A program made the position numbers and the translations under genes. Positions 2,543-34,342 of a DNA stretch of 64,000 bases are shown here, one piece after another. Each line of letters starts with the position of its first letter. Positions within the stretch are counted from its first letter, which is position 1. Origin of the DNA: a virus; IMG/VR virus record IMGVR_UViG_3300046683_000929, positions 34,181-98,180 of that record. One strand, written 5' to 3'. The notes under the pieces were generated by a model that saw only the letters and a program-made list of their open reading frames with translations, was not told the origin of the DNA and did no database searches.

Positions 2543-2626
2543 TCCAATGGATAGGATTCGAACCTATTAAGCCGCAAAGCAATGGATTTACAGTCCATCC
2601 CAATTCACCGTCATTGGAGCCAAAGG
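2543..2626 (-). tRNA. tRNA-Tyr(GTA) with atypical acceptor stem
   Basis: Anticodon arm ATGGA-CTGTAAA-TCCAT; T-arm ATAGG-TTCGAAT-CCTAT; long variable region; acceptor CCTTTGG/CCATTGG has two U-U mismatches. Confidence 0.8.
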
Positions 2627-2636
2627 ATATTAAGAG

Positions 2637-2719
2637 CGGAGAGTATAGGACTCGAACCCTGCGCTTACACGCCGCGCCTGTTTTCAAGACAGGATGTTCA
2701 CCAATGAACGCTACTCTCC
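2637..2719 (-). tRNA. tRNA-Ser(TGA)
   Basis: GGAGAGT/ACTCTCC acceptor, G73, CCTGT-CTTGAAA-ACAGG anticodon arm, long variable arm; T-stem imperfect. Confidence 0.85.
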
Positions 2720-2725
2720 AAGTTG

Positions 2726-2808
2726 CGGAAAATCTGGGATTCGAACCCAGGCAACCTTTCGGTTGTACAGATTAGCAATCTGCTGCCTTACCACTCAGCC
2801 AACTTTCC
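2726..2808 (-). tRNA. tRNA-Ser(GCT)
   Basis: GGAAAGT/ATTTTCC acceptor, G73, GCAGA-TTGCTAA-TCTGT, variable arm CAACC-GAAA-GGTTG, canonical T-arm. Confidence 0.93.
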
Positions 2809-2812
2809 TTTG

Positions 2813-2893
2813 TACCCCATCCCGGACTCGAACCGGGACGCCGAAGCATAAGATTTTAAGTCTTACGTGTCCTACCAATTTCACCAATGGGGC
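2813..2893 (-). tRNA. tRNA-Leu(TAA)
   Basis: GCCCCAT/ATGGGGT acceptor, A73, TAAGA-CTTAAAA-TCTTA, CCCGG-TTCGAGT-CCGGG. Confidence 0.93.
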
Positions 2894-2896
2894 ATG

Positions 2897-2970
2897 TAGC
2901 CTGCCTCAGACTCGAACTGAGAACATCTTGATCCTAAATCAAGCGTGTCTGCCAATTGCGCCAGCAGGCC
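2897..2970 (-). tRNA. tRNA-Leu(TAG) with short 5-nt variable loop
   Basis: GGCCTGC/GCAGGCT acceptor, A73, CTTGA-TTTAGGA-TCAAG, variable loop ATGTT, CTCAG-TTCGAGT-CTGAG. Confidence 0.9.
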
Positions 2971-2972
2971 AT

Positions 2973-3006
2973 AAAAAAAGCCCCTTGATTTTGTCAAGAG
3001 GCTTTT
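2973..3006 (-). terminator. Attenuator terminator (segments 3:4) directly upstream of the tRNA array
   Basis: AAAAGCCTCTTGA-CAAAA-TCAAGGGGCTTTTTTT; U-tract ends 2 nt before G1 of tRNA-Leu(TAG). Confidence 0.85.
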
Positions 3007-3026: not shown

Positions 3027-3101
3027 CTAATCCATAGGATGCCTCTTTGCGTCGTATAACGAATAACTTAACAAGAGACTATATAGATTTTTATTTTTCA
3101 T
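3027..3101 (-). CDS. Attenuator leader peptide MKNKNLYSLLLSYSLYDAKRHPMD
   Basis: Read manually; codons 6-16 are CTA TAT AGT CTC TTG TTA AGT TAT TCG TTA TAC, all Leu/Ser/Tyr, matching the downstream tRNAs; overlaps the antiterminator segments. Confidence 0.82.
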   Translation of the reverse strand: MKNKNLYSLLLSYSLYDAKRHPMD

Positions 3102-3184: not shown

Positions 3185-3192
3185 CAAAAGTA
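3185..3192 (-). promoter_or_regulatory. Bacteroidota-type -7 promoter element for the leader/tRNA transcript
   Basis: TACTTTTG matches TAnnTTTG; about 85 nt upstream of the leader ATG; no well-spaced -33 TTTG seen. Confidence 0.55.
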
Positions 3193-3223
3193 AACTAATT
3201 TTTTAAAATAAAAAATGTAATTC

Positions 3224-3258
3224 AAAATAAAACTGGCCGACATTAATGTCGGCCAGTT
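3224..3258 (-). terminator. Intrinsic terminator insulating the tRNA promoter from upstream transcription
   Basis: Perfect 28-nt palindrome AACTGGCCGACATTAATGTCGGCCAGTT followed by TTATTTT. Confidence 0.75.
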
Positions 3259-3398
3259 AATTGCCGTGGTAAGGTGCTGCAATGGTTCCCATGTAGTACA
3301 TCCAGCCGCGCTCTCTTTAGCTACGCTCTCCAGTTAAAGTCTTAGGATTATGACGGCTTAGATGCATCTACTTATATATATGCATTGAGGTTACCACT

Positions 3399-3875
3399 TT
3401 AGCCAACAGATAAATCTTTTGCTTTCGAAACTTTACTTTTCGCCTCGACTCTTGCTTGTGTGGCAAGCTCCAAATAACGCTTTGCGTCATTAAGTAAATC
3501 ATCGGCCTCTTTTAATAACTGCTTCTTAATAGATATAAAGTCTTTCACATAGCCGAGTTTTTGATAAACTTCGTATTCATCAAGAAACATGAAATGATAT
3601 CCAGCTGGATTAGCCGAAAAATGAGTTACACTGCCCCTATCTTGCATAGGCCCATGATCTGGCACTATCTTAATGTTGGCACACACAGAACTCCATGGCC
3701 GGGTAATTAAAGCCACGCAAACATCGGCACCATTGCTTCGAGCAGCTGAATCATCTGGATTTGGAAAGAAAATGACAGTTTCGCCAAGTTTTGGCATGCG
3801 TTCGCTGAACGCTTGAGAATTATTTTCCACTTTTTTAATTTTAAAGTCCCCGCAACATCGCGGATATTTAGTCAA
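3399..3875 (-). CDS. Hypothetical protein (true start possibly internal, MPKLGETV)
   Basis: ORF track; C-terminal coiled coil. Confidence 0.55.
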   Translation of the reverse strand: MTKYPRCCGDFKIKKVENNSQAFSERMPKLGETVIFFPNPDDSAARSNGADVCVALITRPWSSVCANIKIVPDHGPMQDRGSVTHFSANPAGYHFMFLDEYEVYQKLGYVKDFISIKKQLLKEADDLLNDAKRYLELATQARVEAKSKVSKAKDLSVG

Positions 3876-3889
3876 ATATATAAAATATT

Positions 3890-4264
3890 TTAGTAATACG
3901 TATCAGCCTTTTCGTTGTCGTCTTTATAATCTGTTACTACAAACCCAGTCCATGTACCTCTTACCAGAAGCTTTCTTTTACATCCCTGGCAGTTCATTGT
4001 ATATTGCATTTCATGAGACTCTCCAACTTCTTGCTCACAAGTACAAATAGGGCATTTAAATATGGATGATACTGTAGAGATATGACATGCCACTTTTGGC
4101 TGCGCGATCCATTCGAATATTGACGAAAACCCGAATTTATGACAGATAATATCTGCCTGCTTTTGGTAGTCATCTTTACGAACTCCTTTAAACATCCCAG
4201 CCTTTTTTAAACCGGCAAAGTCAAAGTGCTGTTCCATGAAACTTTTTAATGCTATATCAACCAT
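3890..4264 (-). CDS. Hypothetical zinc-ribbon protein
   Basis: CPIC...CQGC pair. Confidence 0.6.
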   Translation of the reverse strand: MVDIALKSFMEQHFDFAGLKKAGMFKGVRKDDYQKQADIICHKFGFSSIFEWIAQPKVACHISTVSSIFKCPICTCEQEVGESHEMQYTMNCQGCKRKLLVRGTWTGFVVTDYKDDNEKADTYY

Positions 4265-19800: not shown

Positions 19801-21590
19801 TCCAGCCTGCGATTTATCCTTCCTATTTCATTAGGATCGGTACCAGTTAAATCAACTCCTGAAACTCCATTTATTTTTACTTTACTCACAAGGCCCATCA
19901 CCCACGTGGATGTTTTCTCATATTCTGATTTATAATTGGCTTTGTGGCTGCATATTCTTGCTATGTATTTACCGGCCGGCACTATGAATTCAAATTTATG
20001 TAATACATAACCCAGTACACTTGCCGCATTTTTTATCAATGCTACTTGATCCCCTTTTTTTGCATCAACAACATCAATATTTAACAACGACCCATCGGAA
20101 TTCATAATGCATTGAGTGCTTACCGCTGTATATGGCGTACCTGCTAAATATGCTTGAAAGCCAGTATTTCCATCTATGAAATTTGCATTAAAAAAATCAG
20201 CATCTGGATGACTCAGCGTAATGTCCTGTGGTATATTTGATCCATTTGGAAAAGAATATAATACACCGCCAAATCGCACCTGGTCTTCCCCGTCTTTCCA
20301 GTTAAATTGGTTATAACTACCATCCATTGCTACATAGGCATAAATAGTTATCTTCCTGGTTTTAACAAGCGTATCCACCGATGCATCTACGACGGAAGCT
20401 TTAAATTTTGATATGTCCAGCTTCGGAAGGTTATTGTAATTATAAAGATTATCTCCAAGTATTATCGAATCGCCGGCGGCGCTCATTCCGATAGATATCA
20501 ATGGTAAATCACTCTGAAAGGAATTAAAATCATCCTGGTCCACAATATCCAGCTGCCTATCGCCACATATTTGATAAGATATGGTATTATCTACTTCATT
20601 GTATGAGTAATCGGCCCATTGGTCTTCCCTCAGCCAATAGGAATTATTTGTTGGGCCAGTGCCAAAGCGCTCAATAATATCATAAAGATACCAGTCTGCA
20701 CCACAGGGTTTCAGGAAAACCTTTATCCTTTCAACCAGCGCAGATCCAGCATTAAACTTTGCAGTATAACACCGTGGTTGGTTTGTGTTATTTGGATCGC
20801 AAACGTTTTGTTTTAACGCTATGGGGCTGCTATAGGGACTCGATGTGGTTGGTCGCCCATCAGTTAAAACATACTGGTAAGCCACCTGGATGCTTTTATC
20901 TATAAAATAGTTTGGCTTTCCAAAATCGGAAGGAACCGGCGGCACAGGGGATAGTTCCGGCGCGAACATCGGCGGACGAACGGCAAGTTGTAAAAGTTCT
21001 TCCCTGTCAAAATGTGGTGGGCGCAATTTCCAATATGGAAAGTCATCTGGATTGAATCCATTGCTTTTTACCGCAGCCTCCACATTAATAAATCCCTGCC
21101 ATTGATTTCCATCGGTATATATCAATGCTTTTTCATCAATTAACCTGGTATGGCTTGCATCCCTTTTATAGGTTACCCGGATAGATATTCTGTGAGCAGG
21201 TATTTTAAATGCAGGGTTATTGCTGAAATTCAATTTTGGATCAATGATAATAATGTCCGGCTTTAACGTTACCCCGTCGATACGATACCAGCCATGCATA
21301 TTATTTGAATTCCAGTTCGCAAAATAAATCTCATTGGTTTCTTCGCATTCATAAACCCCAATGGTCAAGTTATCTCCGGCAGGCAACGTAATTAAAGCGT
21401 ATTTCTTATTGGCCCGGTTTGGGGTGCCCTTGCCGAAATTACCTCCCTCAACCGGCGCACCCTCGGTTTTATTGGCATTGAACGTCGTCCTGTAATTTTT
21501 TAGATATAGCGCTTCATTTTCAGTTAGAAATTTTGCACTCCTATCCGTAACTACATATAGTGGTTTGTTCTTTGCTATTTGCTGGGCCAT
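16875..21590 (-). CDS. Tail muzzle/stabilization protein (P22 gp10-like, crAss-type)
   Basis: 1571 aa, beta-rich; follows ring-protein genes; C-terminal TFSLDQKRW...FVPEFYG...FNQFYGV pattern. Confidence 0.65.
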   Translation of the reverse strand: MAQQIAKNKPLYVVTDRSAKFLTENEALYLKNYRTTFNANKTEGAPVEGGNFGKGTPNRANKKYALITLPAGDNLTIGVYECEETNEIYFANWNSNNMHGWYRIDGVTLKPDIIIIDPKLNFSNNPAFKIPAHRISIRVTYKRDASHTRLIDEKALIYTDGNQWQGFINVEAAVKSNGFNPDDFPYWKLRPPHFDREELLQLAVRPPMFAPELSPVPPVPSDFGKPNYFIDKSIQVAYQYVLTDGRPTTSSPYSSPIALKQNVCDPNNTNQPRCYTAKFNAGSALVERIKVFLKPCGADWYLYDIIERFGTGPTNNSYWLREDQWADYSYNEVDNTISYQICGDRQLDIVDQDDFNSFQSDLPLISIGMSAAGDSIILGDNLYNYNNLPKLDISKFKASVVDASVDTLVKTRKITIYAYVAMDGSYNQFNWKDGEDQVRFGGVLYSFPNGSNIPQDITLSHPDADFFNANFIDGNTGFQAYLAGTPYTAVSTQCIMNSDGSLLNIDVVDAKKGDQVALIKNAASVLGYVLHKFEFIVPAGKYIARICSHKANYKSEYEKTSTWVMGLVSKVKINGVSGVDLTGTDPNEIGRINRRLDTVDKEMEINVCNSDWDSLTTPDKNYFYIYAPQRLFGKGIIVRKDIRFIDGYVYEKEGNSVPIENLGYISKPNGYDGQPQYLRYGFTTDHNGFYFLYMGARHAMNGEVIFSGIANCNAFAKIAETHINRKNVTIYARYNVSLFDNLGGFGECNRVKIRGKIINQISGLGYSGVGVTSTRGATTYSSTDGSYELIVHEGSLGDRKDRIYINSGNSNGCFIIPDNESCGTIFNYDMLLAPCVKCLPRIYPVEFNVNMKTVVDASNSLKDGGSYGVGCAVFDLAGRATFIQEFNSVDVPTFMEKKSITLPGLQVELLNDIVFDDASRYITFFRTKNKKLQKYIQWVGDKIEFLDKDGEVTNTGAGAIRARITIQSLLDFNTNNNFSTTATYQFSKGDIVRFYDDGKGNLFDPTNGGLMDYLVLGTNFNDSVPEGSLSIAKTDTATNTTTTTTTKTTDTGDGKTLIIPFDKRLLALNNIIDGSDSNELAGCGFWIEIQTPKDTSQIDGYCEIIGTYPIIDNRLSAQVFNLDTFDTYYQSRAFHIKQCTGKAIIHPFASLSVSDYFGLGCDSCGRKLVKDSQAVQKWYPGDVIKSDEFVNEGRINGLGRFRGTNRKEYKVHDMGGIVAIHAQNKQVVFICENNWFMANYDLNIIQVSDQGLIVPAPDQILGEPFQKVNNRYGCALEDTGTVVINDMDGVVFWIDGKNEAIVAMDYKNAVDISNIDNKSYFTNKFTLIRQHNQLLAADKYVRNLFDKSMAFDYKMKELHVSFRPRNELTSDAQYFANTERGVLYTAPETFTFSLDQKRWTQFQTFVPEFYGTLRKSFTGNELISFVAGIPYFHNSIDVDTFNQFYGVSDSQVIEIPFTSGDKDKTYQSLIVQSPDLKYFVDRIRTNRPRMFSYIPASHWRRKNNSWYASVLRDMSSYPDTLHPVVSMLLDGGAKISGEYCIVRFVRDLERMNEYNEVDAIFMQFIGFEKAK

Positions 21591-33127: not shown

Positions 33128-34342
33128 TTAAACCGAAGCGAATGATTGAGCTATCTTTTGGTTATCGGCATCGGAAATTTCAACTGACTTACTTTGTAGT
33201 ATGGTTTTACTTGGTTCGGTAAAACGCTGTTGACTACCTTGGGCCCCTATTTTTTTTCCGGCATCCTTACCAACGCTATATGCTGTCCTTTCGACATCTT
33301 TGTAATGACGATATACCAACTCTTTTTCAGCCGCTCTTGCAATCCGCTCCCTTTGTTCGGGGGTGCCATTACCTTTAACAAACTCTGAAAACTCCTTAGT
33401 ACCTATTTCATCAATCAAAGATTTCTCAATTGCTTTCTTGTCGGCTTTAGTAAGGTCGAAAGTAACCTTCTCTTCGCCTTCGCCAAACTCCCATTTATCC
33501 GGAATGGCCTTCTGTAGCACATCCTTCATCATGGCCTCGAAACCAGGGATAGCTTGGCGTTCTTTTACATCCTGGTCGAACTCGGCCTTAATGTCATCAT
33601 ACTTCTGTTGAAGTGGCCCCTTAATCGCATCGGCGCGAACCTTAATGTTTTTTTCGCCAAGGTCCTTAAGTGCTTTGGTTTCCGAATCAAGGTGATACAG
33701 TTCATTGAACTTATCTTTTATTTCTTCGCTGGTAACCGGGTCGGGGTTGCCGTCAATCTGGCGATCCTTATTTAATTCCTTGTATGAGGCCTCAAAATCT
33801 TTAAACACCAGATCATTGTCTGGCATCTTCATCATATTATGGTATCCTAACCAATCATTATTGGTGAATACTTTTTGCTCAATGGCAAATTTGGCCAGGT
33901 TTGCATTATATACTTCTGCTTTTTGGGCGCGTTGTTCTTCGCTTTCCGGGGCAGCTGGATTCAACTTGGCTTTTAACTCTTCTTCAGAGCTAACACCTAA
34001 ATCCTTTAGAAACTGCTGCCTCATTTCCTGCTTCATCGTTTCTGTTGCAGTAAGCTGGTCGGCTTTCGTTTTTTCGTCTGCTTCCAGCGTGGCTATTTCT
34101 TCAGGACTTTTGCCTGGGTATTTAGCTAAAAGTGCATCGGCGGCAACTTTTTCCGCATCGATTTGTTCTTGTGTTTTCTCGCCGGCTTTAGTAAGCTCTG
34201 CTTCTGCGGCAATTTCATCAGCAGTCTTTTCAACAGCACCATCGCCTTCCGGCACTTTGGTCCTTTCATCTACTATGATTTCTGCTCCAGTGGGCTCAGT
34301 TACAGCCTTCCCCACTTCTTCAAGTCCTTCTCCAAATATCAT
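33128..34342 (-). CDS. Putative scaffolding protein
   Basis: 404 aa, acidic E/K/A-rich and helical, directly upstream of capsid gene. Confidence 0.6.
   Translation of the reverse strand: MIFGEGLEEVGKAVTEPTGAEIIVDERTKVPEGDGAVEKTADEIAAEAELTKAGEKTQEQIDAEKVAADALLAKYPGKSPEEIATLEADEKTKADQLTATETMKQEMRQQFLKDLGVSSEEELKAKLNPAAPESEEQRAQKAEVYNANLAKFAIEQKVFTNNDWLGYHNMMKMPDNDLVFKDFEASYKELNKDRQIDGNPDPVTSEEIKDKFNELYHLDSETKALKDLGEKNIKVRADAIKGPLQQKYDDIKAEFDQDVKERQAIPGFEAMMKDVLQKAIPDKWEFGEGEEKVTFDLTKADKKAIEKSLIDEIGTKEFSEFVKGNGTPEQRERIARAAEKELVYRHYKDVERTAYSVGKDAGKKIGAQGSQQRFTEPSKTILQSKSVEISDADNQKIAQSFASV

Follow-up and report, generated by a model that had tools for sequence, protein, structure and literature searches.

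Why do phages carry transfer RNA (tRNA) genes, and what decides which ones? A debate that has lasted fifty years pits codon compensation against counter-defence. A cluster of five tRNA genes in the IMG/VR virus record IMGVR_UViG_3300046683_000929 poses the question in compact form: a single leader precedes five tRNAs, each of which is for leucine, serine or tyrosine. We analyzed a 64,000-nt stretch (positions 34,181 to 98,180, hereafter the window), which is the right-hand 64 kb of this 98,180-bp virus record (GC 39.9%). Proteins encoded in the window include a large terminase (TerL), GroEL, a DnaB-like helicase and two giant proteins (3029 and 1571 amino acids). The closest TerL proteins among cultured phages are those of Flavobacterium, Cellulophaga and Maribacter podophages, which makes a Bacteroidota host probable, although the identity is only 22%. 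Our analyses suggest that the array is a self-regulating tRNA supply cassette for complete Leu/Ser/Tyr decoding, a reading to which we assign a probability of roughly 0.7 and which draws on sequence logic and on co-variation between leaders and arrays.

ARAGORN called five tRNA genes on the minus strand between window positions 2542 and 2970 (all window coordinates below refer to features on this strand). In order of transcription, these are tRNA-Leu(UAG) (2897 to 2970, 74 nt), tRNA-Leu(UAA) (2813 to 2893, 81 nt), tRNA-Ser(GCU) (2726 to 2808, 83 nt), tRNA-Ser(UGA) (2637 to 2719, 83 nt), and tRNA-Tyr(GUA) (2543 to 2626, 84 nt), with intergenic spacers of 3, 4, 6 and 10 nt. No CCA is encoded 3′ of any of the five, and no further tRNA was found in the whole 98,180-bp record, which is rated "linear" with an estimated completeness of 55%. 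A preliminary description of the locus, made from the letters and a list of their open reading frames, had listed the same three families, 3- to 10-nt spacers and missing CCA ends, and had asked whether the rest of the genome holds other tRNAs; ARAGORN and the sequence agree with it on families, spacers and CCA ends. Four of the five genes also reached the Rfam tRNA gathering score: tRNA-Leu(UAG) with 44.2 bits, tRNA-Leu(UAA) with 55.2 bits, tRNA-Ser(GCU) with 59.1 bits and tRNA-Tyr(GUA) with 30.4 bits, barely over the 29-bit threshold. tRNA-Ser(UGA) gave only a sub-threshold match of 32.9 bits to the tRNA-Sec model of the tRNA clan. The anticodons and identity elements assign the five genes to the Leu, Ser and Tyr families. 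Specifically, both Leu tRNAs and tRNA-Tyr have A73, both Ser tRNAs have G73, and the Leu-type D-loop AAUUGG-AGA is present in both Leu tRNAs (AAUUGGCAGA in tRNA-Leu(UAG)).

Together, the five genes form a minimal complete set for the 14 Leu, Ser and Tyr codons (UUR, CUN, UCN, AGY and UAY), with one tRNA per codon box. By simple counting, which gives a post hoc estimate, an array for three amino acids would consist of exactly Leu, Ser and Tyr with a chance of 1/1140. We take the grouping to be deliberate, and the leader open reading frame (ORF) described below, which is written in the same three amino acids, provides independent evidence. A different shared trait, the reading of UNN codons by tRNAs with i6A37, was considered and dropped, as only three of the five tRNAs fit it.

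Upstream of the array lies a leader ORF of 24 codons plus stop (3027 to 3101), with the sequence MKNKNLYSLLLSYSLYDAKRHPMD. Its codons 6 to 16 (3054 to 3086; CUA UAU AGU CUC UUG UUA AGU UAU UCG UUA UAC) are 11 consecutive Leu, Ser or Tyr codons. None of the six reading frames of the 98-kb genome holds a longer run of these three amino acids, and 0.01 runs this long would be expected. Each of the five array tRNAs has at least one cognate codon in the run. A degenerate pattern of the run gave no match in IMG/VR. The runs that rank next genome-wide are three of eight codons, one of which, LLLSLSSL, lies just downstream of the array (2344 to 2367); its frame has no visible start codon, and it may be the relic of a second leader or a chance occurrence.

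The elements around this ORF are those of a putative ribosome-mediated attenuator. The box TACTTTTG (3185 to 3192), read from the sequence, matches TAnnTTTG, which we take to be the Bacteroidota −7 promoter motif, and is the putative promoter. An intrinsic terminator lies between the ORF and the genes (segments 3 and 4; 2973 to 3006). It consists of AAAAGCCUCUUGA-CAAAA-UCAAGGGGCUUUU and a U run and forms a 13-bp hairpin of −16.6 kcal/mol, with the U run ending 2 to 3 nt before tRNA-Leu(UAG). A simple terminator scan overlooked this hairpin because the stem uses part of the T run. In free and constrained folds, segment 2, AAGAGGC (3041 to 3047), pairs either with segment 1, which lies inside the codon run, or with segment 3. 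With no ribosome on the leader, the 1:2 and 3:4 pairings form, with a minimum free energy of −30.7 kcal/mol and a z score of −3.4. When a footprint is placed on codons 10 to 14 and segment 4 is unmade, segment 2 instead pairs with the terminator 5′ arm GCCUCUU to give a 2:3 antiterminator of about −12 kcal/mol. A ribosome placed at the stop codon masks segment 2, so that the antiterminator is absent and only the terminator forms. The locus has, in short, a short upstream ORF with a run of cognate codons, a terminator ahead of the genes, and, in silico, an exclusive antiterminator that depends on ribosome position. Membership in a known Rfam leader family was not found: Phe_leader scored 23.9 bits against a 55-bit threshold and the trpB motif 24.7 bits against 59. 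These matches and one to the PyrR attenuator are far under threshold and were not used as evidence.

We then compared the locus with the corresponding site in relatives collected through alignment of the giant protein; the comparison of arrays sets aside the closest relatives, at 80 to 95% identity (P0049 to P0051, P0001 and P0002) and most Logan contigs. The array site, between the giant gene and a MAK...FP gene, is a variable island with three different arrays and one empty site. A 100-kb phage (L001/L002) has Pro(UGG), a short Leu(UAG) and Leu(UAA), the only tRNAs in the L001 record, behind the leader MKQISLLNLLGLPLPGIKGRSMD, which contains six Leu and two Pro codons. In L003, Pro(UGG), Gln(UUG) and Glu(UUC) stand behind the leader VKANKSYPQPEERDIIVR, and in L004 the syntenic site is without an array. 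Constrained folds gave a ribosome-dependent antiterminator in L001 and L003 as well, from different sequences. More distant relatives (TerL identity 25 to 35%) have no tRNAs except one odd 64-nt match and are uninformative. Because the tRNA sets differ between relatives and each leader has changed along with its set, what is conserved would be the sensing and refilling of whichever tRNAs a cassette encodes, and not the class II shape (long variable arm) of these tRNAs.

The same design was found in a cultured phage, Cellulophaga phage phi4:1, which has three promoter-leader-terminator units, each codon-matched to its own tRNA block. Unit 1 has the run QRLHLQELEQP ahead of Pro, Glu, Gln, His, Leu, Leu and Arg(ACG); unit 2 has TKTGITVIDKTKGARAY ahead of Ala, Lys, Ile, Gly, Met, Asp, Thr, Val, Arg(UCU) and Met; and unit 3 has NYCTYNNSNWSFSY ahead of Tyr, Ser, Asn, Trp and Phe. 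The match extends to the Arg codons: leader 1, ahead of tRNA-Arg(ACG), uses CGU, and leader 2, ahead of tRNA-Arg(UCU), uses AGA. A permutation test was carried out on six leader-array pairs (this phage, L001, L003 and the three phi4:1 units). The true pairing was the unique best of the 720 permutations, and no tRNA lacks a cognate codon in the leader ahead of it; the design is thus conserved, with co-variation, in L001, L003 and the three phi4:1 units. As a negative control, the 23-tRNA array of phage crAss001 has no codon-matched leader. The tRNA blocks of 32 other viral contigs, considered further below, reached a leader-like score of 3.9 or less at best among the scores listed, compared with 7.0 here. 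The presence of the same device in a cultured phage makes it testable at the bench.

Two features of phi4:1 (L026, positions 530 to 700, 1470 to 1670 and 3230 to 3430) were observed in passing. Its GenBank record carries no annotation for leaders 1 and 3, and it places the start of gp075 at a TTG within the promoter. Its tRNA blocks sort roughly by first codon base, with CNN in the first, GNN and ANN in the second, and UNN with AAY and AGY in the third.

The relatives also provide a natural swap experiment, in which arrays and leaders change while codon usage stays constant, and which separates codon demand from array content. For the demand side, we compared the predicted genes of this phage (G000) with those of a relative (G001). 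In G000 and G001, respectively, Leu accounts for 7.87 and 7.91% of codons, Ser for 6.31 and 6.24%, Tyr for 4.26 and 4.27% and Pro for 4.08 and 4.07%; synonymous usage is near-identical, and Leu, Ser and Tyr add up to 18.4% in either phage. The arrays nevertheless differ, with Pro, Leu and Leu in G001 and Leu, Leu, Ser, Ser and Tyr in G000. What the array holds is therefore not determined by the codon demand of the phage. The preliminary description had proposed comparing codon usage, and on the phage side this comparison gives no sign that the set is explained by codons enriched in the phage.

How might such a cassette work? In the proposed mechanism, the five tRNA genes would be transcribed from their own promoter through the attenuator. 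When decoding is fast, the ribosome would reach the stop codon and cover segment 2, the terminator would form ahead of the first tRNA, and transcription would end. When decoding is slow, a ribosome stalled in the codon run would leave segment 2 free to pair with the terminator 5′ arm, and the polymerase would enter the tRNA genes. Host enzymes would excise the new tRNAs and add CCA, and once these were charged the stall would be relieved, closing a negative feedback loop. By writing the leader in the codons of its own array, the phage would measure decoding speed and make tRNAs on demand. We infer that the leader ORF is translated and that read-through responds to stalling; the attenuator, as predicted, fits a response to tRNA shortage. 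Candidate causes of the scarcity are a host defence that inactivates tRNAs, decay of host tRNAs during infection, or a poor host pool.

Several points weigh against this reading. At equilibrium the terminator (−16.6 kcal/mol) beats the 7-bp antiterminator (−8.4 kcal/mol alone), and the model therefore depends on the kinetics of folding during transcription, as the trp operon does. The CUC in the run counts for tRNA-Leu(UAG) only with four-way U34 wobble. No Shine-Dalgarno sequence is evident before the leader ORF, although its absence is usual in Bacteroidota, the phylum to which the host probably belongs. tRNA-Tyr is divergent and unusual for a bacterial type, with a C1-G72 first pair and two U·U mismatches in the acceptor stem, and, given its weak model match, it might be non-functional. 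The independent arrays compared within the phage's own clade number three, and the cassette model does not explain the exact choice of Leu, Ser and Tyr.

This last point leads to the explanations that address the choice directly. In the first, the make-up of the array is a historical accident: the five genes were left over, or acquired as a block, from a larger array, their class II make-up has no function, and the leader was adapted later. The variable island, with its three arrays and one empty site, is in keeping with such a history, and the short Leu(UAG)-Leu(UAA) pair recurs in L001, phi4:1 and L060, with Tyr and Ser adjoining in phi4:1. The cassette is, moreover, flanked on both sides by exact 18-nt repeats. 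The upstream copy of this A/T box, TTTTTTATTTTAAAAAAT, lies at 3198 to 3215 and is probably a promoter element or a cassette boundary. The second copy (2505 to 2522) comes directly after tRNA-Tyr and is followed by TATGTTTG (2491 to 2498); it marks where the cassette ends and the next noncoding unit begins. These are the only perfect copies in the window, with 0.08 expected by chance. The repeat may serve as a promoter element common to both units, or as a boundary at which recombination adds or removes the cassette; L004 lacks the array. If losses were independent, however, keeping exactly these five from a pool of about 24 would have a chance of 1/C(24,5), or about 1/42,000, a figure that block deletions would raise, and the leader is precisely matched to the five, which argues that the set is under selection as a unit. 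We consider an accidental make-up unlikely.

A second explanation, favored by the preliminary description, is that the set was selected for class II shape, with a host nuclease or other tRNA-inactivating enzyme reading the long variable arm and the array replacing, or acting as decoy for, the depleted Leu, Ser and Tyr tRNAs. All five genes do fall into the three class II families, and in the leader they are handled as a unit. Complete decoding sets suit replacement better than the topping up of rare codons, and phage codon demand does not explain the set. The families named in that description hold for all five tRNAs, but the long arm it ascribed to each of them is found in only four. The variable region is at least 14 nt in both Ser tRNAs and in tRNA-Tyr (an arm of about 14 nt in the latter) and 11 nt in tRNA-Leu(UAA), and in tRNA-Leu(UAG), which has A73 and G37, it is a 5-nt loop, AUGUU, as in class I; a variable region above about 10 nt in every member is not what the array has.

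The arm-less tRNA-Leu(UAG) is conserved, by alignment, in L001 and phi4:1, and a motif search for it returned 33 IMG/VR contigs, 32 of them besides the L001 record itself. In these 32 contigs, which the motif itself selected, short forms account for 32 of the 34 copies of Leu(UAG), 13 of the 18 of Leu(UAA) and 7 of the 8 of Leu(CAA), compared with none of 30 Ser tRNAs and 1 of 15 Tyr tRNAs. Because arm-less tRNA-Leu is common, a phage tRNA of a class II family cannot be assumed to have the class II shape, which matters for any hypothesis of a nuclease that reads the variable arm. Class I families are mixed in at 31 of the 32 contigs. At the syntenic site, relatives have Pro/Leu/Leu, Pro/Gln/Glu or no array, and in phi4:1 the Leu tRNAs sit with Pro, Glu, Gln, His and Arg, and Tyr and Ser with Asn, Trp and Phe. 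Thus, related arrays do mix class I and class II tRNAs, which the preliminary description had named as an outcome that would count against its idea. Of its proposal that selection acted on shape and not on codon bias, the second half agrees with the comparison of G000 and G001, and the first is not supported, given the arm-less tRNA-Leu(UAG) and the varied arrays of relatives.

Nor did the literature consulted supply the enzyme. The precedents cited in the preliminary description, SLFN11 acting on type II tRNAs and PtuAB on tRNA-Tyr, are sound (PMC13462974, PMC12673091, PMC13096335). However, we found no bacterial enzyme in that literature that acts on all class II tRNAs. The bacterial Schlafens covered there are not specific for type II tRNAs and cut the anticodon arms of Lys, Ala and Met tRNAs or the T-loop (PMC13056530, PMC13462974), and the bacterial toxins that are directed at the variable arm act on one family each, PtuAB/Septu on tRNA-Tyr (PMC13096335) and MenT3, which needs the long loop of tRNA-Ser, on that tRNA (PMC11162799). 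With an arm-less Leu(UAG) and mixed arrays in relatives, a host nuclease aimed at class II tRNAs is unsupported, and selection for class II shape appears improbable.

A narrower form of the idea takes the arm-less tRNA-Leu as its starting point. E. coli leucyl-tRNA synthetase (LeuRS) does not require a long variable arm. If only LeuRS tolerates its loss, the largely arm-less state of Leu tRNAs next to long-armed Ser and Tyr tRNAs would be the pattern of an escape. The cassette would then be a depletion-triggered counter to a host enzyme that reads the long arm in the manner of PtuAB/Septu or MenT/AbiEii, with the leader peptide sensing the lost decoding of Leu, Ser and Tyr codons and turning on replacement tRNAs; tRNA-Leu would have escaped by losing the arm, and the Ser and Tyr tRNAs, which keep theirs for their synthetases, would rely on altered arms or on supply. 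A variable-arm-directed host enzyme fits the arm-less tRNA-Leu and has no direct support, and the varied content of arrays in close relatives argues against shape as the organizing principle; we hold this version to be a slim prospect.

Arm-less Leu tRNAs (73 to 77 nt; anticodons UAG, UAA and CAA) are widespread in IMG/VR contigs L028 to L060, where the Ser and Tyr tRNAs alongside keep long arms. One viral contig (L056, 102 to 5802) has seven Leu tRNAs and one Ser tRNA and no others in 10 kb, with long (82 to 84 nt) and short (73 to 75 nt) forms of the same Leu anticodons (CAA, CAG and UAG) side by side.

Finally, codon compensation, in which the array tops up Leu, Ser and Tyr codons that are poorly served by the host tRNA pool, is the most widely accepted explanation of phage tRNAs (PMC10264068) and is in keeping with U34 and G34 anticodons that read the A/U-rich codons of a 40% GC phage, in which UUA, UCA and UAU are the preferred synonyms, but we judge it a poor candidate here, as G000 and G001 differ in their arrays at the same 18.4% Leu, Ser and Tyr and about 4.1% Pro codons, every codon of the three amino acids is covered and not selected rare ones, and a fixed mismatch needs no attenuator that senses shortage.

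The surroundings of the cassette were also inspected. A strong terminator hairpin (3231 to 3258; a 12-bp stem and T tail found by the terminator scan) closes the upstream unit and isolates the cassette. The 18-nt direct repeat brackets the leader and array, with a TAnnTTTG-like box after each copy. About 170 nt without an ORF (3230 to 3400), between a 158-amino acid ORF and the cassette promoter, end in the 3258 to 3231 terminator and may be a small RNA; they gave no credible Rfam match. After the array comes a noncoding stretch of about 620 nt (1870 to 2490) with two T-arm-like GGTTCGATCCC motifs (at about 2268 to 2286 and 2014 to 2031) and a terminator near 1875 to 1905. The two T-arm-like elements were considered as permuted tRNA mimics and rejected, as their folding is no better than that of shuffles (z scores of +0.97 and −0.05) and there is no Ro60/TROVE gene. 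The record encodes no CCA-adding enzyme, RtcB or Ro60/TROVE protein, and no tRNA repair module was seen. In L001, a cloverleaf-like RNA (20648 to 20720) with a 7-bp acceptor stem, a T-arm and an 8-nt anticodon loop (CUCAUAAC) follows the small ORF after the array and is called by neither ARAGORN nor the Rfam tRNA model. In L003, the 87-nt gap between tRNA-Pro and tRNA-Gln (3938 to 4024) holds a T-arm-like hairpin and then a D-arm-like piece, and may be a degenerate or permuted tRNA.

Searches of the neighboring ORFs against PHROGs and Pfam gave nothing significant. A 124-amino acid neighbor ORF (3890 to 4264) matches Lar, a restriction-alleviation protein, with 18.4 bits, below the threshold of 28.6 bits. 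This hints at accessory or anti-defence genes in the island that separates the giant gene from the array. No match was obtained in IMG/VR with TerL as a single query or with the 100-amino acid neighbor protein, or in GTDB genomes with the giant protein.

How does the proposed cassette compare with known systems? In its parts it resembles the enterobacterial leader attenuators (trpL, hisL, leuL and pheL, the multivalent thrL and ilvGMEDA, and pheST), which likewise have a short ORF with a run of regulatory codons, four segments with 1:2, 2:3 and 3:4 pairings, and a terminator just before the genes; the ilv and thr leaders also sense several amino acids together. Those attenuators, however, regulate enzymes or a synthetase, whereas the genes here are tRNA genes in a phage probably of Bacteroidota, and this leader, unlike theirs, samples each codon box served downstream and belongs to no Rfam leader family. 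Our literature search found no description of leader-peptide attenuation of tRNA genes.

Phage tRNA counter-defence, as in T5 tRNA-Tyr against retron-Eco7/Septu PtuAB or tRNAs with altered anticodon loops, is similar in that phage tRNAs, tRNA-Tyr included, may replace lost host tRNAs, and the variable arm is a known point of attack (PMC11555353, PMC13096335, PMC10264068). Those systems have a named host nuclease, whereas the present one is known from phage genes alone and its content varies between close relatives; expression here appears to be gated by a shortage sensor, as opposed to early and constitutive or amplified there. Phage phi4:1 (NC_021788) shares the promoter-leader-terminator-tRNA layout, the adjacent pair of arm-less Leu(UAG) and Leu(UAA), and the codon-matched leaders, but differs in having 22 to 24 tRNAs in three blocks that serve all amino acids, with Leu, Ser and Tyr ungrouped, in a 146-kb genome of another lineage. 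The nearest published case is the stress-induced trn operon of Anabaena, also an extra tRNA array, which is silent until translation is impaired (PMC8421152, PMC10272220). There, on a bacterial megaplasmid, control is by the repressor TrcR; here, in a phage, a codon-matched leader and terminator would do the same work in cis.

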